Sequence record: NC_049343.1
Reading direction: 5' to 3' (one strand)
Origin: Escherichia phage 500465-2
DNA: 33,041 bases
Shown: one piece after another, positions 11,260-25,945 of the stretch
Layout of the letters: each line of letters starts with the position of its first letter
Position numbering within the stretch: position 1 is the first letter of the stretch
Position numbers and translations under genes: made by a program
The notes under the pieces: generated by a model
What the model was told of the DNA's origin: nothing
Seen by the model: the letters and a program-made list of their open reading frames with translations, nothing else
Database searches by the model: none

Positions 11260-11860
11260 TTCACTGTTACCGCCATCAGCCAGCCGTTTCATGCGTTGCG
11301 CCGAAGCAGTCGGAGCGCGCATTACAGACATCCCGGTAGACCTCAACACGCTGTGGTCACCGGACACCTGCCCGGTGCATTTGCTGCCTTATCTCGCCTG
11401 GGCGTTTTCCGTTGACCGCTGGGATCGCAACTGGCCGGAAGAGACAAAGCGACAGGTGATTCGTGATGCATGGCTGATACACCGACACAAAGGGACCATC
11501 AGCGCACTGCGAAGAGCCGTGGAGCCTCTCGGCTACCTGATTGAAGTAAAGGAGTGGTGGCAACTCAACGAGGAGCCAGGAACATTTCGCATTGTTGTCG
11601 GAGTACTTGATCAGGGCATCACCGATGAAATGTATCAGGAACTTGAGCGCCTTATTGCGGATGCAAAACCAGTAAGTCGCCATCTGACGGGGCTGGCGAT
11701 CAGCCTGAGTGTGAACGGAAAGATTTTCGTTGGTACGGGATGCTATCACGGCGATGCCCTGACGGTTTATCCCTACACCCCGGAGTCCATTATTGTCGAA
11801 GGGGATTATTTCCCTGCCCCGGCCATTCATTTAATTGATAATCTGAGAGTAAACGCATGA
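11252..11860 (+). CDS. Baseplate/tail protein I (P2 gpI-like)
   Basis: ATG at 11252 overlaps the J stop; ends with overlap onto the H start (ATGA). Confidence 0.8.
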   Translation: MSNSLLPPSASRFMRCAEAVGARITDIPVDLNTLWSPDTCPVHLLPYLAWAFSVDRWDRNWPEETKRQVIRDAWLIHRHKGTISALRRAVEPLGYLIEVKEWWQLNEEPGTFRIVVGVLDQGITDEMYQELERLIADAKPVSRHLTGLAISLSVNGKIFVGTGCYHGDALTVYPYTPESIIVEGDYFPAPAIHLIDNLRVNA

Positions 11861-13362
11861 CAGTGAAATACTACGCCATTCTGACTAATCAGGGCGCGGC
11901 ACGACTGGCTAACGCGACGATGCTCGGCAGTAAGCTGAATCTGACGCAAATGGCCGTTGGTGATGCAAATGGTGTGTTACCAACACCAGACCCTGCACAA
12001 ACAAAACTGATTAACCAGAAACGCATTGCACCGCTGAATCTTCTGAGTGTTGACCCTAACAATCAGAGCCAGATTATTGCTGAGCAAATCATCCCTGAAA
12101 ACGAGGGAGGATTCTGGATCCGTGAGATTGGTCTTTATGATGATGAAGGTGTACTCATTGCGGTGGCAAACTGCCCGGAAACGTACAAACCGCAGTTGCA
12201 GGAAGGCAGTGGACGCACCCAGACTATCCGCATGATTCTGGTTGTCACGAACACCGAAGCCATCACGCTGAAAATCGACCCGTCGGTGGTACTGGCGACC
12301 CGTAAATACGTGGATGATAAAGTCCTGGAATTAAAGCTGTATGTGGATGACCAGATGAGAAACCACATTGCCGCACAGGATCCTCATACCCAGTATGCGC
12401 AGAAACATAATCCGACATTTACCGGAGAACCAAAAGCGCCGACGCCTGCCGCAGGAAATAACACCACGCGGATTGCGACCACTGAGTTTGTTCAGGCCGC
12501 TATTACCGATCTGATTAACGGTGCGCCAGCCACGCTGGACACACTGAAAGAAATTGCCGCAGCCATTAACAATGACCCGAAATTCAGCACCACCATTAAC
12601 AATGCGCTGGCACTGAAAGCGCCGCTATCGAGTCCGGCACTTACCGGAACGCCAACAGCACCTACTGCGGCACAGTCGGTCAACAATACACAGATTGCCA
12701 CCACAGCTTTTGTGAAATCAGCAATTGCGGCAATGGTGGGTTCTGCCCCTGCGGCACTGGATACACTGAATGAACTGGCGGCGGCGCTGGGGAATGACCC
12801 TAACTTTTCAACAACAGTGCTTAATGCACTGGCAGACAAACAACCGCTGGACAATACGCTGACTAATTTGAGTGGAAAGGATGTTGCTGGTCTTCTCGCA
12901 TACCTTGGTTTGGGAGAAGGTGCTCCAGCTATTGGCGTTCCGTTCTTCTGGCCCTCCGCGGCAATGCCAAATACTGTAATCGACAGCTGGTCCGGTATGG
13001 TGTTTTTGAAGTTCAACGGGGCGAAATTTTCTGCCTCTGATTACCCTGTGCTGGCGAAAGTGTTTCCTTCGCTGGTATTACCTGAAGCCCGCGGTGATTT
13101 CATTCGTATCTGGGATGACGGGCGAGGTGCAGACGGTGGTCGCGAATTATTAAGCTGGCAGGCAGCTACAAACTTTTCTCAGTTTGCCGGGAATATAGGC
13201 GAAGGTGCGGGACACGCAATTAACTTTCATGATGGCATCGCCGGAAATCAGCCAGGATTTTCACGATTTAATTTCACCAGTAACTCTGTGGGTGATGGTG
13301 TGAATTTTGTTGCTGTCAGACCGCGAAATATTGCATTTAACTTTCTGGTGAGGGCTAAATAA
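11857..13362 (+). CDS. Tail fibre protein H (constant N-terminal part plus currently expressed variable C-terminal part Sv)
   Basis: 501-aa ORF; two tandem ~53-aa repeats (T.IATT.FV...APA.LDTL.E.AAA..NDP.FSTT..NALA.K.P); a Gin-type crossover site lies inside the ORF at 12893-12918. Confidence 0.9.
   Translation: MTVKYYAILTNQGAARLANATMLGSKLNLTQMAVGDANGVLPTPDPAQTKLINQKRIAPLNLLSVDPNNQSQIIAEQIIPENEGGFWIREIGLYDDEGVLIAVANCPETYKPQLQEGSGRTQTIRMILVVTNTEAITLKIDPSVVLATRKYVDDKVLELKLYVDDQMRNHIAAQDPHTQYAQKHNPTFTGEPKAPTPAAGNNTTRIATTEFVQAAITDLINGAPATLDTLKEIAAAINNDPKFSTTINNALALKAPLSSPALTGTPTAPTAAQSVNNTQIATTAFVKSAIAAMVGSAPAALDTLNELAAALGNDPNFSTTVLNALADKQPLDNTLTNLSGKDVAGLLAYLGLGEGAPAIGVPFFWPSAAMPNTVIDSWSGMVFLKFNGAKFSASDYPVLAKVFPSLVLPEARGDFIRIWDDGRGADGGRELLSWQAATNFSQFAGNIGEGAGHAINFHDGIAGNQPGFSRFNFTSNSVGDGVNFVAVRPRNIAFNFLVRAK
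12893..12918. repeat. Gin/Cin/Pin-type recombination site (left), inside H
   Basis: ttctcgcataccttggtttgggagaa; matches the reverse complement of the right site at about 20 of 26 positions, core TTGGTTT.GGAGAA. Confidence 0.55.
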
Positions 13363-14740: not shown

Positions 14741-14795
14741 TGCAGAGGTAACAGCTAACTGGCATCATCCCCGGTTTTTATTCAGGGGGATGATC

Positions 14796-15383
14796 ATGCT
14801 TATTGGCTATGTTCGCGTATCAACAAATGACCAGAATACAGACCTGCAACGAAACGCTCTTGTTTGTGCAGGATGCGAACAAATATTTGAAGATAAATTA
14901 AGCGGGACAAAGACAGACCGACCGGGATTAAAACGCGCTTTAAAGCGCCTTCAAAAAGGCGACACGCTGGTTGTCTGGAAACTGGATCGCCTCGGGCGAA
15001 GCATGAAACATCTGATTTCTCTCGTCGGGGAACTACGGGAGCGAGGGATTAATTTTCGCAGTCTGACCGACAGCATAGATACATCTTCTCCAATGGGGCG
15101 TTTTTTCTTCCACGTGATGGGTGCCCTGGCTGAAATGGAACGTGAATTAATTGTTGAACGTACACTGGCCGGACTGGCTGCAGCGCGCGCACGAGGGCGC
15201 ACAGGCGGACGTCGCCCGAAGCTGACAAAAGAACAGCATGAGCAAATAGCAAGGCTGATCAAAAACGGGCACGACAGAAAACAACTGGCAATAATTTACG
15301 GCATTGGTATATCGACGATTTATCGTTACCACCCCGCAGGAGAATCAAGCGGAACAATTGAGAAGAGTCAGGAAACAAAATAA
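14796..15383 (+). CDS. Serine recombinase DNA invertase (Gin/Pin/Cin/Hin family)
   Basis: MLIGYVRVSTNDQNTDLQRNALVCAGCEQIFEDKLSG...GDTLVVWKLDRLGRSMKHLISLVGELRERGINFRSLTDSIDTSSPMGRFFFHVMGALAEMERELI is near-identical to Gin/Pin as recalled; catalytic-Ser N-terminal domain and C-terminal HTH. Confidence 0.92.
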   Translation: MLIGYVRVSTNDQNTDLQRNALVCAGCEQIFEDKLSGTKTDRPGLKRALKRLQKGDTLVVWKLDRLGRSMKHLISLVGELRERGINFRSLTDSIDTSSPMGRFFFHVMGALAEMERELIVERTLAGLAAARARGRTGGRRPKLTKEQHEQIARLIKNGHDRKQLAIIYGIGISTIYRYHPAGESSGTIEKSQETK

Positions 15384-20994: not shown

Positions 20995-21151
20995 AGCTTC
21001 AGCCCCTTGTATCCGTTAAATGATTCGGCAACAATCATCACCCACCACGCGCGTAATCTCACCCCTGCGCCATTCTCCCGCCACGGCGACAACAAAAAGC
21101 AGTAACCCCCTCCGCACGCACATGCGACCATGCCACACAGGGAGGGAGCAG

Positions 21152-22261
21152 ATGACCGACACCACCATGCAATTGCTCAGTCAGGGCACAGACCCCGTGA
21201 AAATGCCGGATTTTGATATTCTCGCCGAGGGTAAAACGCTGTCCGGCGTGGCAGAACGCCTGATGAGCCTGTCACTGACCGACAACCGGGGATTTGAGGC
21301 GGACCAGCTCACCATCACGCTGGATGATGCCGATGGCCAGTTGCAGCTACCGCCACGGGGCGCGCGTCTGACGGTTCTCATTGGCTGGAAAGGGGAACCG
21401 CTGACAGAAAAAGGCACTTACATTGTTGATGAAATCGCTCACGAAGGACCGCCGGACAGGCTGACTGTTTCAGCCAGAAGCGCAGATTTTCGGGATGAAT
21501 TTAATGTTAAACGTGAGGCGTCCTGGCATGATGTGACCGTTGAACGTGTGGTATCCGCCATCGCTCATCGGTACGGCCTGAAACCGCAAATCAGCGAAAT
21601 GCTGATGGATATCGAAATCGACCACGCCGACCAGACTGAAGAAAGCGACATGTCCTTCCTTACGCGCATGGCGGAAATGCTGGGCGCAATCACCACGGTA
21701 AAAAGCGGTAATCTGTTATTCATCATGCCCGGCGGTGGCGTAAACGCACAGGGCCAGCCGTTGCCATCGTTCGCCATCACACGCAGCAGCGGCGATCGCC
21801 ATCAGTTCCGCATTGCTGACCGCGAGGCGTATACGGGGGTACGCGCTTACTGGCTTGATCTTAATTACGGGAAAAAGAAAAAAGTCAGCGTGAAACGCCG
21901 CAAACCGCCAAAACCCAAAAAGGAGAAAAGCAGCAGCCGTGAAGGTGATTATATGGAAGGCGCGGAAGGCAATGTGTTTGTGTTACGCAAGACTTATCAG
22001 AACGAGCAGGCAGCAAGACGCGCAGCGGCGGCAAAGTGGCAGCAGCTACAACGCGGAGCCGCATCGTTTTCCATCACGCTGGTGCGTGGACGTGCAGAAC
22101 TCTACCCCGAAATGCATGGCACGGTAACAGGATTTAAAAGCGAGATTGATAATCAGGACTGGATTATTGCGAAAGCCGAGCACACCATTGATAACAGCGG
22201 CTTTACCACACAGCTTGAGCTTGAGGCAAAAATCCCGGAATGGATAGCAGAAACAGAGTGA
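21152..22261 (+). CDS. Tail protein D (late control gene D-like)
   Basis: ORF 21020..22261; likely start ATG 21152 behind GGGAGGGAG; C-terminal part resembles gpD. Stands alone on + strand, divergent from FI. Confidence 0.8.
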   Translation: MTDTTMQLLSQGTDPVKMPDFDILAEGKTLSGVAERLMSLSLTDNRGFEADQLTITLDDADGQLQLPPRGARLTVLIGWKGEPLTEKGTYIVDEIAHEGPPDRLTVSARSADFRDEFNVKREASWHDVTVERVVSAIAHRYGLKPQISEMLMDIEIDHADQTEESDMSFLTRMAEMLGAITTVKSGNLLFIMPGGGVNAQGQPLPSFAITRSSGDRHQFRIADREAYTGVRAYWLDLNYGKKKKVSVKRRKPPKPKKEKSSSREGDYMEGAEGNVFVLRKTYQNEQAARRAAAAKWQQLQRGAASFSITLVRGRAELYPEMHGTVTGFKSEIDNQDWIIAKAEHTIDNSGFTTQLELEAKIPEWIAETE

Positions 22262-22381
22262 GCAACTTAGACATATTAGCTCAAACTTAAACTGGCAAGT
22301 TTACAGTATAGAATTAAACATAAACGACGGTCCGCTCCGTGTCAGAAGCGGACTTTGTCATCCCTATGTAAGGTTGATTGC

Positions 22382-23404
22382 TTAATACGCATTTAATTTA
22401 AATTTGTATTTGCCTTCTATGTAATGGATAAATTCAATTATGCTTTTTTCTATCGCATCTAATATATGAATATATCCATCCCGATTTAAGGTCCTATCCA
22501 ACTCAAAGTGATGAACTATCCCATGTCTATATTGTATGATTTCAGAAATTCGATTCTCAAGAAAATCAACTGATTTTCCAATTCTTTTTTTCTTATAAAG
22601 AATCGCTCTCACATCTATATCCAGCCACTCTTTATATGCTTTGTTTAGGTGGGTTAAGTTTTGAAAAGTGTAATTTCTTGCAATAACACTTTCTATTGAA
22701 ATATTTCCTTTCTCTATCTCAAGCAGAATATCAAAATCAACTTTTTGCTTATACGATGTTCTTTTTGCTATTGCGAAAGGATCGTACTTTATAAGTATTT
22801 GAAAAGCTCTAGAGAAAAAGTATTCAAACATAGCAACCGCAAAAGGTACTAATCCATTATATATAACTCTACTGGGATCCATACATTGCATGTAATCAAA
22901 GTATTCGGATAAGCCGCCATCTTCCGGTAGGTTTAATTTAATAGAAGGTTCAGGTAAGGCATGTTTAACAGCGGAAATCTCATGATGGACATGATTAAAT
23001 ATTGAAGAAATGCCACGACTGATCGGACTACTAGAATCCTTCCATAGAGGAGCGTACCTATTTTTCCCATAATCACCTATAAGTGTTCCACCAAAAAGAC
23101 TCCTTGCGCCTTTTAGAACATCATTAAGCATTTTTACATCATGCCAACTAGCGCTATATAAATTACGCACATGCAATGCCCATTTATTACCAGATATGTG
23201 TAATTCGTCATTTGAAACAGGATATATATCAGCCGAAACTCCATCTGTAGATTTGAAGTCCGTATCATCAAACCAAGAGTAATTCAACGTTCCTTGGGGC
23301 CATTCCCACAAATGTTTACACCTTTTAAAACCTAAATTTTCAAGGTAATTTTTAAGTTCGTTTCTAGTTGCTTTTTTAGGGTACAGCGTTATATCTCTTC
23401 CCAT
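22382..23404 (-). CDS. Hypothetical protein, AT-rich cargo gene between D and ogr; C-terminal HEPN-like Rx4H motif (candidate abortive-infection/defence protein)
   Basis: 340-aa ORF in a visibly AT-rich block; no resemblance to P2 structural or regulatory proteins that I recognise; motif IIQYRHGIVHHFELDRT near C-terminus. Confidence 0.7.
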   Translation of the reverse strand: MGRDITLYPKKATRNELKNYLENLGFKRCKHLWEWPQGTLNYSWFDDTDFKSTDGVSADIYPVSNDELHISGNKWALHVRNLYSASWHDVKMLNDVLKGARSLFGGTLIGDYGKNRYAPLWKDSSSPISRGISSIFNHVHHEISAVKHALPEPSIKLNLPEDGGLSEYFDYMQCMDPSRVIYNGLVPFAVAMFEYFFSRAFQILIKYDPFAIAKRTSYKQKVDFDILLEIEKGNISIESVIARNYTFQNLTHLNKAYKEWLDIDVRAILYKKKRIGKSVDFLENRISEIIQYRHGIVHHFELDRTLNRDGYIHILDAIEKSIIEFIHYIEGKYKFKLNAY

Positions 23405-23595
23405 GCTTTATTCACCTGATATACAATATTTTAAATTTTAACTATTATGAACGTATGAATTTTCACATTGGATGTATGGAAGTTCAACAACTATTGAAAG
23501 TTCAATTTTCACTCTTCGCACAGAGCGAGCTGTTAGTTGGAATTAGGGATCGTACAATCTAGAATAGCGGCAACACCACGTTAAGGGAGGTCGCT

Positions 23596-23900: not shown

Positions 23901-24252
23901 GGGTGCCTTTCGGCTGATGGTCGGAGGGAATACCCGAAGGCCAGATGTGGAAAGGCCCCGGAAAACACTTTTGTTTAACCGAGGCCCTAACCGTCTACCC
24001 TAAGCAAGTGAAAGGTTAGCGCCTCTCCGGAAAAGGAGCAAGTGCTATGTCGCAAAAATCGCTTACAGCCATCACGTTCTGCGTGACGGTAATCCTCATC
24101 ATCTGGATGTTGCACGGTTCGCTGTGCGAAATACGGATGAGTTTCTGGGGAGCGGAGTTTGCGGCGTTCTTACAGTGTAAGCAGTAAGGAAACCGCGACG
24201 GGGGAGTAATCCCCCGTCAATCGGTTGCCAGGGTAAGGTCGATAAGGCACCC
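23901..24252 (+). promoter_or_regulatory. hok mRNA-like regulatory envelope: 5' element gggtgcctt (23901-23909) exactly complementary to 3' element aaggcaccc (24244-24252); 3' hairpin 24195-24218
   Basis: Long-range 9-nt perfect complement flanking the toxin ORF, as in the tac/fbi fold-back pairing of hok mRNAs. The antisense sok-like RNA and its promoter were not located. Confidence 0.5.
24047..24187 (+). CDS. hok: Hok/Gef-family type I toxin (46 aa, below the ORF-track cutoff)
   Basis: MSQKSLTAITFCVTVILIIWMLHGSLCEIRMSFWGAEFAAFLQCKQ: N-terminal TM helix, conserved SLCEIR and E.AAF motifs as in HokA-E; RBS AAAGGAG upstream. Confidence 0.8.
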   Translation: MSQKSLTAITFCVTVILIIWMLHGSLCEIRMSFWGAEFAAFLQCKQ

Positions 24253-24385
24253 TATCTCACGGCTCTAAATGCAAAAATTCCATGAAACTGTGGGATTTTT
24301 GCATCACTACTGATACAGATCTGCCCTTCTATATGTCTCACTCTATACCAGCTAATCAATTGACACTTATCAATAAAAAAAAATC

Positions 24386-24394
24386 TGATAAAAT
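24386..24394 (+). promoter_or_regulatory. Extended -10 promoter element (TGaTAAAAT) upstream of the zinc-ribbon gene; TTGACA hexamer at 24360-24365 is too far for canonical spacing
   Basis: Seen in sequence; about 55 bp upstream of ATG 24449. Confidence 0.35.
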
Positions 24395-24448
24395 CAAAAT
24401 GTTTTGTAACAAATATCAACTCGTATTGATCCAAAGGAGGCGGATTAC

Positions 24449-24781
24449 ATGGCATTAATCAAATGTCCTGAATGCCAGAAAGAGGTGAGCGATTCAGCAT
24501 TGTATTGCCCTGCTTGCGGTAAACAAATAAAAAAACTTAAGCGTTCATTTTTTGGAAAGCTCATTAAGTGGATATTTATATTATTTAATATTTTTATGAT
24601 CTATACGCTTTTAGTTGGACTGGGAGGCACTAGTGAAATAATAAATAATGCTACATCCGATGCCGAAAAAGCCGGTGCAGTTATTGGTACAGGCTTAGGT
24701 TTAATTACCATTGGAAGTTTATGGGTTATTGGCGATATCATTATCGGAATTTTAGTATTTCTTACTAAACCAAAAGGATAA
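24449..24781 (+). CDS. Zinc-ribbon membrane protein (N-terminal CPEC...CPAC ribbon, two predicted TM helices)
   Basis: 110-aa ORF with strong RBS (AAAGGAGG); MALIKCPECQKEVSDSALYCPACGKQ followed by hydrophobic helices; AT-rich. Confidence 0.7.
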   Translation: MALIKCPECQKEVSDSALYCPACGKQIKKLKRSFFGKLIKWIFILFNIFMIYTLLVGLGGTSEIINNATSDAEKAGAVIGTGLGLITIGSLWVIGDIIIGILVFLTKPKG

Positions 24782-24785
24782 CAAA

Positions 24786-25679
24786 ATGAAAAATATAATT
24801 TTTTCTATAGGTGCATCATTTATATCAATTAGTGTACTGCCTGTTCACGCAGCAACTGAACATAATAACTTCAATGCAGTACTCCAGTGCCGAGCAATAG
24901 AAAATAATAAAGACAGACTTTCTTGTTACGATAAGTCAATACAACCGACTCGAACGAAAGTTGCTGAAAAATTCGAAAGCAGAGATCAATGCCCTGATGA
25001 GAAAGATGATGACAGACGTTTATCTTGTTATGATCGTTTTTTTTCTCCAACATTTACTCCATCTGTAAACTCAAAATCTAAAACGGAAAAGCCAGTAACA
25101 ACAGAGGCTCAGCAACCAAATCTTTCTGAGATATCTAAATGCCGAGCAGAAAATGATAAAGAAGCCAGACTAAACTGCTACGATAAACTATTCCCACAGG
25201 ATAAAGCTGTTCAAGCTGAATCAAAATTAGAGAAAGCCACAGATGTAGGAAAATGGCACACATCCATTACTACATCGCCAATTGATGATTCGAAAAATGT
25301 AATTTTATCGTTAGAAAGTGATGATTATATCAGAACTCCATTTGGAGAAGCGGTTACTCCCACTCTGTTTATAGCTTGCCGAGAAAAGAAAACCGAAGTA
25401 TTTCTTAGTTGGGATGTATATTTAGGCCTTGAACAAACCAGCATGCTTTATCGTCTTGATAAACAGAAAGCAGTTGAGCGAAACTGGCTAGTATCTACAG
25501 ATACAAAGGCTGTTTTTTATAAAGGTAATGACATTGATTTCATCCGAAAACTAGCCAACTCAAACAAAATGTATACAAAAATAACTCCTTATAATGAGAG
25601 CCCTGTAAGTGCAACTTTCAATTTAAACGGCCTGTCAAACGCGCTAAAACCACTTCAAGCTGCTTGTAACTGGAAATAG
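24786..25679 (+). CDS. Secreted protein of unknown function with three Cys-containing repeats (C...RLSCYD) and a C-terminal domain with a Cys pair
   Basis: 297-aa ORF 4 bp after the zinc-ribbon gene; signal peptide MKNIIFSIGASFISISVLPVHAA; repeats QCRAIENNKDRLSCYDK / QCPDEKDDDRRLSCYDRF / KCRAENDKEARLNCYDKL. Confidence 0.7.
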   Translation: MKNIIFSIGASFISISVLPVHAATEHNNFNAVLQCRAIENNKDRLSCYDKSIQPTRTKVAEKFESRDQCPDEKDDDRRLSCYDRFFSPTFTPSVNSKSKTEKPVTTEAQQPNLSEISKCRAENDKEARLNCYDKLFPQDKAVQAESKLEKATDVGKWHTSITTSPIDDSKNVILSLESDDYIRTPFGEAVTPTLFIACREKKTEVFLSWDVYLGLEQTSMLYRLDKQKAVERNWLVSTDTKAVFYKGNDIDFIRKLANSNKMYTKITPYNESPVSATFNLNGLSNALKPLQAACNWK

Positions 25680-25708
25680 CATAAATCATGTGGCTTAGCC
25701 ACAATCCA

Positions 25709-25746
25709 GATAACACAAAGCCCGTGAAAACGGGCTTTGTGTTATC
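25709..25746 (+). terminator. Perfect 16-bp stem hairpin (gataacacaaagcccg-tgaaaa-cgggctttgtgttatc) after the cassette; no T-run
   Basis: Seen in sequence; a second small palindrome tgtggc-tta-gccaca lies at 25689-25703. Confidence 0.4.
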
Positions 25747-25945
25747 TGTAACTCGAAAATGTGGTCACTACGTGGACACGTGCTGATATAAATCCTTTTA
25801 TATCAATAAATTAAATCATCATTTTTTTCATCAACAAGGATTTTCACGTTTGTGTTACCTGTATGAGACGAGAGTTAACCGGACAAGTGTGCCATAATCT
25901 CGCGGCCAGGCATACTTGCGAAGATTTCAGGTATAAGGATACGTA

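Follow-up and report, generated by a model that had tools for sequence, protein, structure and literature searches.

What does an AT-rich gene lodged between gpD and ogr bring to a P2-like prophage? The question is raised by Escherichia phage 500465-2 (sequence record NC_049343.1), of which we analysed a stretch of 33,041 nucleotides (nt), hereafter the window. It holds the late-gene end of an Escherichia coli P2-like prophage, integrated beside flk/yfcJ/fabB. Our analysis suggests that the island at positions 22262-23595 is probably a single-gene cassette encoding a self-contained HEPN ribonuclease (RNase) that is activated by infection and would provide the lysogen with an abortive-infection defence. 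A reading of the sequence alone (the sequence-only reading) had put the gene forward as a candidate for such a role. This is now supported by HEPN profile matches and a structure model, by the variability of the slot in which the gene lies, and by the defence systems that adjoin its relatives. The defence function itself is what we infer from these results.

The island and its single gene

In the list of open reading frames (ORFs) of the window, gpD ends at 22261 (TGA at 22259-22261), and 23596 is the first position of ogr. A single substantial ORF lies in between; it is on the minus strand (22382..23404), convergent with gpD, and encodes 340 amino acids (aa). The sequence-only reading had described a block of about 1.3 kb at this place, AT-rich relative to the flanking phage genes and with a single minus-strand ORF; its coordinates are correct, and so is the rest of the description. 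The GC content of the island (1,334 bp) is 0.346, against 0.542 in the phage sequence to its left (22 kb), and at third codon positions it is 0.27 in the cargo gene and 0.59 in gpD. The island is present at full length and at least 95% identity in 65 of 5,426 complete E. coli genomes (~1%), and a protein identical to its product is encoded on at least 1,000 contigs. All 20 copies of the gene among the matches listed are labelled "hypothetical protein."

The unit is this one gene, which is self-contained. The island has no other ORF of at least 48 aa; shorter ones (20-47 aa) lie within the gene in other frames or lack support. An adjacent, co-oriented type II antitoxin gene of the HepT-MNT or RnlAB type was found neither in the island nor at other loci. 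The neighbours of the gene differ in every other locus examined, none being conserved, and across eight divergent loci the flanks show no conservation beyond a leader of ~40 nt, with promoter and ribosome-binding site, in three close cassettes. An RNA antitoxin like that of AbiF was considered and rejected, given these flanks and the absence from the island of tandem repeats (score of at least 30) and of any Rfam match at E<=1 within 22262-23595. The abiF motif is presumably among those in Rfam.

A two-domain protein with a HEPN domain

The protein is a HEPN protein at the domain level and appears to be of the PF18735 sequence type at the family level. The Pfam profile PF18735 (HEPN_RiboL-PSP) matches aa 181-329 over profile positions 29-189 of 191, with an E value of 1.2e-4 and 22.5 bits for a gathering threshold of 28.4. 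Among 75 diverse relatives, 50 reach E<=0.01 with this profile (best 4.3e-10), and most close homologs carry PF18735 as a precomputed match. The Rx4-6H motif of the HEPN superfamily is present as R293-HGIV-H298. It lies within IIQYRHGIVHHFELDRT (aa 289-305), the segment near the C terminus in which the sequence-only reading had noticed an R-x4-H signature. Across the 75 diverse sequences, down to ~20% identity, only E194, F247, R293 and H298 are invariant, while H294 (93%), Q248, G55, D89, N94, G105, G106 and G113 are conserved in at least 90%. The invariance of the catalytic residues suggests a metal-independent RNase activity, at a composite active site that arises when HEPN domains dimerise.

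The structure models bear on whether the motif falls in a helical fold of the HEPN type, as the sequence-only reading would have it. A first model, built from 31 close sequences, had a predicted local distance difference test score (pLDDT) of 84, with residues 292-299 below 50. A second one, built from the 75 diverse sequences, reached a pLDDT of 96.5 and a predicted template modelling score of 0.90. It predicts a helical domain at aa 176-333, in the form of a four-helix up-and-down bundle with R293-H298 at the C-terminal end of a core helix (282-299), which is the arrangement expected of HEPN domains. Profile search and model both favour the HEPN assignment. Other resources returned little: PADLOC and NCBIfam profiles do not match the protein, PHROGs gave nothing meaningful (best E 0.092), Foldseek found no match in the PDB at E<0.02, and a sequence search of the PDB yielded only noise, with no solved structure matched.

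The HEPN domain is preceded by an alpha/beta domain, to which no family could be assigned and for which we propose a sensor or regulatory role. This N-terminal domain has a conserved patch made of D89, N94, G105, G106, G113 and NRY115-117. Mean identity in the alignment of close homologs (A1) is 77% for the N-terminal domain, 71% for the HEPN domain and 47% for the connecting helix and linker, the least conserved part; in the diverse alignment (A2) it is 30% for the N-terminal domain and 28% for HEPN. By this measure, the N-terminal domain is conserved at least as strongly as the HEPN domain. A word-indexed search retrieved 295 homologs, the best 120 of which are full-length proteins of ~340 aa with 64-87% identity. 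An exhaustive search of 1.84 billion cluster representatives gave 284 clusters at E<=1e-3, and the two-domain length is kept down to ~22% identity. We looked for the N-terminal domain joined to other effectors and discarded this possibility: the matches restricted to it are frameshifted or truncated gene calls with junk C termini. The domain is always fused to this HEPN, and domain shuffling is unsupported.

Two claims of the sequence-only reading stood in part. The protein does have the His cluster noted there (FNHVHHEISAVKH, aa 136-148), but only H138 reaches 90% conservation in A1 and no position does in A2; we therefore rejected the cluster as a functional site, since it is not conserved beyond close relatives. 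The family had also been suspected to be undescribed. Its HEPN sequence type is known, whereas the two-domain architecture, the N-terminal domain and a defence role were not found described.

A cassette-exchange hotspot between gpD and ogr

To see what other P2-like prophages have at this position, we joined the flanks of the island, deleted the island itself, and used the result as a query against the 5,426 complete E. coli genomes. The flanking gpD-ogr region was matched in 1,515 of them, and at least 80% of it in 1,112. We then sampled 43 junctions with both flanks, evenly down the match ranking. In 26 of these the junction is empty, with only 41-54 bp from gpD to ogr, in agreement with the earlier statement that the two genes are adjacent in canonical P2. 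The other 17 (~40%) are occupied, five of them by the island of the window (1,334 bp; 1,344 bp in one). The occupied junctions carry seven types of cargo, always one gene, on either strand, between arms that are conserved on both sides. Besides the HEPN gene these are nuclease-type and hypothetical genes (Table 1).

Hence, the gpD-ogr junction is a cassette-exchange hotspot of P2-like prophages rather than the site of a single insertion event. It has the features by which Rousset et al. 2022 recognise prophage defence hotspots: a small locus, conserved phage flanks and a high turnover of unrelated cargo. The comparison of gpD-ogr contents that the sequence-only reading had called for reveals a variable slot with alternative single-gene cargo. 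PADLOC recognises none of the seven cargo types as a system, and just two of the other cargoes have weak, partial PADLOC matches (best E 9e-5 and 3.3e-5). We regard the six other cargoes as candidate defence genes. The two short conserved anchors of the slot could provide a cheap route to new candidate systems in genomes and metagenomes.

Relatives and their defence neighbourhoods

Where else is the family found? We scanned ~100,000 species-representative genomes with the close alignment A1, and the scan therefore captured only the close subfamily. The scan found it at only 21 loci, with 56-88% identity. The hosts are Hafnia, Mixta, Halomonas, Endozoicomonas, Marinobacter, Moraxellaceae, Halochromatium, Alloalcanivorax, Desulfuromusa, Desulfobacterales, Ulvibacter, Winogradskyella and Kapaibacterium, together with metagenome-assembled genomes (MAGs) of Gemmatimonadaceae and Patescibacteria and a Spirochaetia genome. 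Such identity across at least six phyla is an unusual feature of the family. With tblastn, no relative turned up among 72,556 plasmids and 50,697 phage records, and the island is also absent from the phage records. The gpD-ogr slot is used in Escherichia only. We considered the same slot in other genera and rejected it, as the homologs of Hafnia (88%) and Mixta (85%) are not located beside gpD or ogr and have no match in phage DNA; most of the genes around them lack annotation. A further locus was assigned to the Firmicutes, in a 4.2-kb contig (DEQA01000038.1) of the MAG "Planococcaceae bacterium UBA3378." It carries a 100% identical HEPN gene with gpD and ogr of the E. coli type, and is almost certainly E. 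coli contamination of the MAG bin.

The relatives in other phyla adjoin bona fide defence systems, which favours the view of the gene as defence cargo. We compared the neighbourhoods of 24 loci outside E. coli, from several phyla, by matching crude ORFs to PADLOC at E<=1e-5. The 135 ORFs within 3 kb matched 340 models, many at E<1e-100, and the 108 ORFs at 6-9.5 kb matched 54. This comparison is rough, and the enrichment of defence genes near the homologs is nevertheless unambiguous. Near matches include type I restriction-modification (2e-294), ThsA twice (4e-202), HamB (E=0), DrmD (1e-199), a CBASS cyclase (1e-105), RT_VI (a DRT reverse transcriptase), LmuA twice and PDC candidates; Pfam adds ResIII (three times), SIR2_2 (twice), integrases (twice) and STALD. 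The neighbouring systems in other phyla are thus restriction-modification, Thoeris, Hachiman, DISARM, CBASS, DRT and Lamassu. Individual carriers are diverse. In Pantoea the homolog is in a lambdoid prophage, with a SIR2 gene ~6 kb away in the same early region; in Pseudomonas it is in an integrase-AlpA-DUF927 island adjoining a UvrD helicase; others are in small islets beside HNH or toxin-antitoxin genes.

Proposed mechanism and alternative explanations

These results lead us to propose the following mechanism. The cargo gene would be expressed in the lysogen from its own promoter, and the protein would stay latent until infection, possibly through the N-terminal domain or its interface with HEPN around D89, N94, G105-G106 and G113. 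The N-terminal domain could sense a cue common to many infections or dock a universally conserved RNA. The 56-88% identity across phyla would fit either role. Because the whole protein keeps 60-70% identity in hosts exposed to entirely different phages, we speculate that the cue or docking partner is universal, which seems likelier than recognition of a variable phage protein. The cue might be a nucleotide or nucleic-acid by-product of infection, or the docking partner a conserved RNA. Upon activation, HEPN domains would come together in pairs, creating the composite active site, and cleave an essential RNA. By analogy with ApeA, DARNA, HepS and PrrC, the likeliest substrate would be tRNA anticodon loops, a choice that is possible rather than probable, with mRNA or rRNA less probable still. 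Translation would then stop before the invading phage matures.

A broader proposal can be made more tentatively. The protein may represent an unnamed single-protein defence family whose RiboL-PSP-type HEPN RNase is gated by an unclassified alpha/beta domain, the signal being a bacteria-wide cue such as an infection-derived nucleotide or nucleic acid, a conserved host RNA or a state of the ribosome, while the gpD-ogr junction may be a fourth, largely unmined P2 hotspot with mostly unrecognised single-gene immune cargoes. A universal cue, if true, would explain the 56-88% identity from E. coli to Bacteroidota, Desulfobacterota, Gemmatimonadota and Spirochaetota.

Several observations weigh against a defence RNase of this kind. 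The PF18735 score of the protein itself (22.5 bits) is under the gathering threshold (28.4). Defence sensors that follow fast-evolving phage proteins do not typically show conservation across phyla as high as this. Several homologs stand alone amid housekeeping genes. The comparison of near and far neighbourhoods counts models and not proteins, uses crude ORFs and lacks a genome-wide baseline, and defence genes also occur in the far set (6-9.5 kb). The candidate native promoter is weak: it has 8/12 consensus positions, is below the threshold of the promoter scan and was read by eye. No member of the family matches PADLOC v2, and the link to validated systems is through the HEPN superfamily only. 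In the accessible literature we found no experimental test of the protein or of a close relative, and we infer its RNase activity, toxicity, phage protection, trigger and substrate.

Among the alternatives, the one that survives best, unlikely as it is, holds that the protein is a HEPN defence effector but depends on something encoded at another place, be it a factor of the host, a different gene of the prophage or the signal of a separate sensor (compare Csm6 and cyclic oligoadenylates), so that the gene on its own would not protect. The N-terminal domain shows no recognisable sensing fold, and its conserved patch (D89, N94, G105-G106, G113, NRY) could be a second-messenger pocket. The cross-phylum conservation would fit a universal small-molecule ligand, and a CBASS cyclase and ThsA are among the neighbours of homologs. 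Yet no neighbour is conserved in 24 or more loci, all of whose contexts differ, and the E. coli slot contains no cargo besides this gene. ApeA, DARNA and HepS are, moreover, single HEPN proteins that both sense and act.

The protein could also be a toxin, serving to stabilise its element by addiction or post-segregational killing, or to compete with P4 satellites and other P2-like phages. This seems quite unlikely: the island has no antitoxin ORF, no repeats of an RNA antitoxin and no Rfam match, the flanks are not conserved across the family, and many homologs are in chromosomal defence islands rather than on elements that need stabilisation.

An RNase for the cycle of the phage itself, or for counter-defence, would act on late transcripts, on host mRNA after induction, or on host immune RNAs or signals. 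The gene adjoins the late-gene activator ogr, with which it has a common intergenic control region, and some HEPN proteins degrade cyclic oligoadenylate signals (10.64898/2026.02.22.705581). However, the gene is missing from most P2-like prophages and unrelated genes replace it in the slot; it is transcribed opposite to gpD and ogr and insulated by a hairpin that is terminator-like on both strands; and it has no relative in the 50,697 phage records, most relatives being in non-phage contexts. We consider this role very unlikely. Finally, a HEPN-like protein that binds but has no catalytic activity, or a functionless passenger gene in decay, is hardly credible given that R293, H298 and E194 are invariant in 75 sequences to ~20% identity, that the ORF is intact at >=95% identity in 65 of 65 E. 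coli genomes with an identical protein on at least 1,000 contigs, and that full length is kept at 56-88% identity across phyla.

Organisation of the slot

Comparison with an empty site (L011) gives the precise limits of the cassette. The 42 nt between gpD and ogr in that site correspond to window positions 22262-22271 and 23564-23595, and the true insert is therefore 22272-23563 (1,292 bp). The empty junction reads GAGTGAGGAACTTAGA followed directly by ATAGCG. An imperfect direct repeat flanks the cassette, as TGAGCAACTTAGA at the gpD stop and as ACAA(C/T)(T/C)TAGA at the right end, and one copy is kept in the empty site. In the window the right copy is ACAATCTAGA (23554-23563). The end of the right arm, which is TGAGCTAGTACAACTTAGA in most strains, resembles the 3' end of gpD.

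The arms appear to supply regulatory parts regardless of the cargo. The left arm holds a GC-rich hairpin (GTCCGCT..AGCGGAC, 22330-22353) that the terminator scan finds terminator-like on both strands, and that looks like a terminator for both gpD and the cargo gene. The right arm starts with a hairpin-like element, CTCTTCGCACAGAGCGAG (23512-23529). It also contains, just upstream of the ogr ribosome-binding site, most of a promoter-like site with a -35 box TTGGAA (23537-23542), a 17-nt spacer and a -10 box TAGAAT (23560-23565) that overlaps the junction. This is probably the ogr promoter, and the promoter context of ogr seems to have been duplicated so that ogr stays expressed despite the cassette.

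The region upstream of the HEPN gene is specific to this cargo. On the minus strand, a candidate promoter could be read by eye as TTGAAC (23487-23482), a 17-nt spacer with TGt, and GAAAAT (23464-23459). The direct repeats AGTTCAA, to which the sequence-only reading had drawn attention, are present at 23481-23487 and 23499-23505. Their significance did not hold up, as some 8-mer direct repeat occurs in 25% of shuffles of the 191-nt region. We therefore rejected them as operators; they are more simply seen as TTGAAC boxes resembling a -35 element on the strand of the cargo gene.

Table 1. Features of the gpD-ogr slot in the window, and cargoes found in the same slot of other E. coli strains (among loci L012-L017)
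Feature	Position or insert	Strand	Basis
gpD stop and left copy of the imperfect direct repeat bounding the cassette (TGAGCAACTTAGA)	22259..22271	+	alignment of window, empty site and six other cargo types
Left arm, common to all occupied versions whatever the cargo (~80 nt after gpD stop)	22272..22354	.	junction alignment
Cargo gene, two-domain 340-aa protein, RefSeq WP_000532200.1 "hypothetical protein"	22382..23404	-	ORF list; RefSeq annotation in strain B7A; homologs
C-terminal HEPN domain, aa 176-340, RiboL-PSP-HEPN type	22385..22879	-	
Catalytic motif R293-H-G-I-V-H298 (Rx4H), reverse complement AGA CAT GGG ATA GTT CAT	22511..22528	-	
Long connecting helix, aa 127-149, and variable linker, aa 150-175	22880..23029	-	model; alignment
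N-terminal alpha/beta domain, aa 1-125	23030..23404	-	strands 2-8, 40-44, 56-62, 75-82, 107-110; helices 14-23, 87-104
Cargo-specific AT-rich upstream region	23405..23511	-	sequence
Right arm, common to all occupied versions (~50 nt)	23512..23563	+	junction alignment; promoter/terminator scan
Native gpD-ogr spacer with the ribosome-binding site of ogr (AAGGGAGG), the same whether the site is empty or occupied	23564..23595	+	junction alignment
GmrSD_N cargo, 527 aa	insert 2,191 bp		other strain, same slot
PIN_4 cargo, 500 aa	insert 1,981 bp		other strain, same slot
DUF3800 cargo, 389 aa	insert 1,493 bp		other strain, same slot
SEC-C/"YecA family" cargo, 379 aa	insert ~1,815 bp		other strain, same slot
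Hypothetical cargo, 221 aa	insert ~1,000 bp		other strain, same slot
Hypothetical cargo, 465 aa	insert ~1,840 bp		other strain, same slot

Other features of the prophage

The gene to the left of the slot, gpD, is intact in the window (region 21020-22261; the ORF runs to 22261, likely start 21152). Many RefSeq records (L001, L012-L017) annotate it as an 801-nt gene for a "contractile injection system protein, VgrG/Pvc8 family," with a small pseudogene on the opposite strand. This shortened version is an annotation artefact and not a real truncation.

To the right, ogr is directly followed by a hok/sok-type module (23901-24187), with a Hok ORF of 46 aa (24047-24187) and a sok RNA that matches RF01794 with 51.9 bits (E 3.9e-10), under the gathering score of 59. 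It is an addiction-type module on a P2-like prophage. A hok/sok module also follows ogr in the P2-like prophage of O145 strain RM9872, integrated elsewhere (near ihfA/pheT), and the module is therefore part of the right end of the prophage, between ogr and attR. From hok to flk there is a second AT-rich block (24250-25900, GC 0.36), which encodes a 110-aa zinc-ribbon/transmembrane protein (24449-24781) and a 297-aa protein annotated "TagO" (24786-25679). At the same flk site another strain has a TM2-domain gene in place of these genes, and B7A has an extra IS1. The block looks like another variable slot, at or just past attR.

A DNA invertase gene (14790-15383, "recombinase family protein") adjoins oppositely oriented tail-fibre assembly genes, and the segment 13927-15383 is an invertible host-range segment. 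The tail-fibre gene is intact in the window (11857-13362) and split into pseudogenes in B7A.

Comparison with known systems

The classical accessory and defence hotspots of P2 are old-tin and Z/fun (Rousset et al. 2022, PMC9122126; Moura de Sousa et al. 2026). Like them, the gpD-ogr slot is small, lies between conserved phage genes, and has a high turnover of AT-rich foreign cargo of one or a few genes; unlike them, it occupies neither of the two classical positions. We found no explicit description of it in the papers accessible to us. The "third hotspot between a tail protein and CI" of iLund4u may overlap it.

The HEPN domain of the island protein appears to be of the same sequence type as the RiboL-PSP-HEPN family, an Rx4H four-helix bundle of the RNase type. 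That family is distantly related to AbiD/AbiF, and its described contexts are a fusion to endoRNase L-PSP or an operon with ParB/DUF262 (Anantharaman et al. 2013, PMC3710099). HEPN domains of the PF18735 type are listed for PD-T4-2, PD-T4-5, PD-T7-3 and ApeA (PMC10952713), PD-T4-2 being a two-gene system of DUF262 and HEPN (Vassallo Table S1). In contrast with these contexts, the island protein has neither an L-PSP fusion nor a ParB/DUF262 partner: an L-PSP domain is absent from the protein and its 75 relatives, and ParB/DUF262 from the window and from the top 25 Pfam families of the 135 neighbours. It also differs from the family as described by its fixed alpha/beta N-terminal domain of 125 aa. 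PADLOC models, including those of PD-T4-2, PD-T4-5, PD-T7-3, ApeA and AbiD, match neither the protein nor any of the 75 relatives, and we rejected membership in these systems or in AbiD/F. A 320-aa RiboL-PSP-type HEPN protein of the "GNAT" system of DefensePredictor proved unrelated, as only the motif helix aligns (hhalign probability 0.5%). WP_000532200.1 does not appear in those parts of the DefensePredictor tables that were accessible.

AbiD/AbiF (Abi_2) and PD-T4-5, described as a distant AbiF/D relative, resemble the island gene in being single-gene HEPN abortive-infection proteins on mobile elements. Pfam Abi_2 and the PADLOC profiles of AbiD and PD-T4-5 do not match the protein at E<=10, nor do they match the 75 relatives. 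AbiF is neutralised by a cis-encoded noncoding RNA with abiF motifs (PMC12373285), whereas tandem-repeat and Rfam searches detect no RNA antitoxin in the island.

The closest analogies are with single-protein HEPN tRNases of abortive infection, namely ApeA (10.64898/2026.01.26.701840), DARNA/PD-T7-3 (10.64898/2026.02.22.705581) and the prophage-encoded HepS (PMC13043305). ApeA (Gao et al. 2020) is a tRNA anticodon nuclease whose activation goes through a pocket remote from its active site (10.64898/2026.01.26.701840). Like the island protein, it is a single protein with a non-catalytic N-terminal region and a C-terminal HEPN; it has ~580 aa, is almost all helical, and forms decamers or dodecamers of three-domain subunits with a split HEPN, against 340 aa, an alpha/beta N-terminal domain and a compact HEPN here. 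DARNA/PD-T7-3 cleaves tRNA when triggered by a generic cue of infection, single-stranded DNA that the single-stranded DNA-binding protein of the phage displays (10.64898/2026.02.22.705581). It shares with the island protein the Rx4H motif and the status of a single-protein E. coli HEPN system, and differs in its N-terminal HEPN (R117/H122), C-terminal helical DNA-sensing domain, 456 aa and dodecameric assembly. HepS, from the Salmonella prophage Gifsy-1, is a protein with a single HEPN domain, and it senses the tail-tip proteins of siphoviruses (Nature 2026, PMC13043305). Its matched chain (9oik_A) has 218 residues and no sequence similarity to the island protein, being absent from the PDB sequence search at E<=10.

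The island protein is most likely analogous to ApeA, DARNA and HepS, yet outside those families. If confirmed, it would be a compact, 340-aa single-protein HEPN immune nuclease with a sensor domain of unclassified type, scattered over at least six phyla. Its conservation could help to approach a general question that ApeA and DARNA pose: which by-products, common to all infections, signal danger to bacteria?

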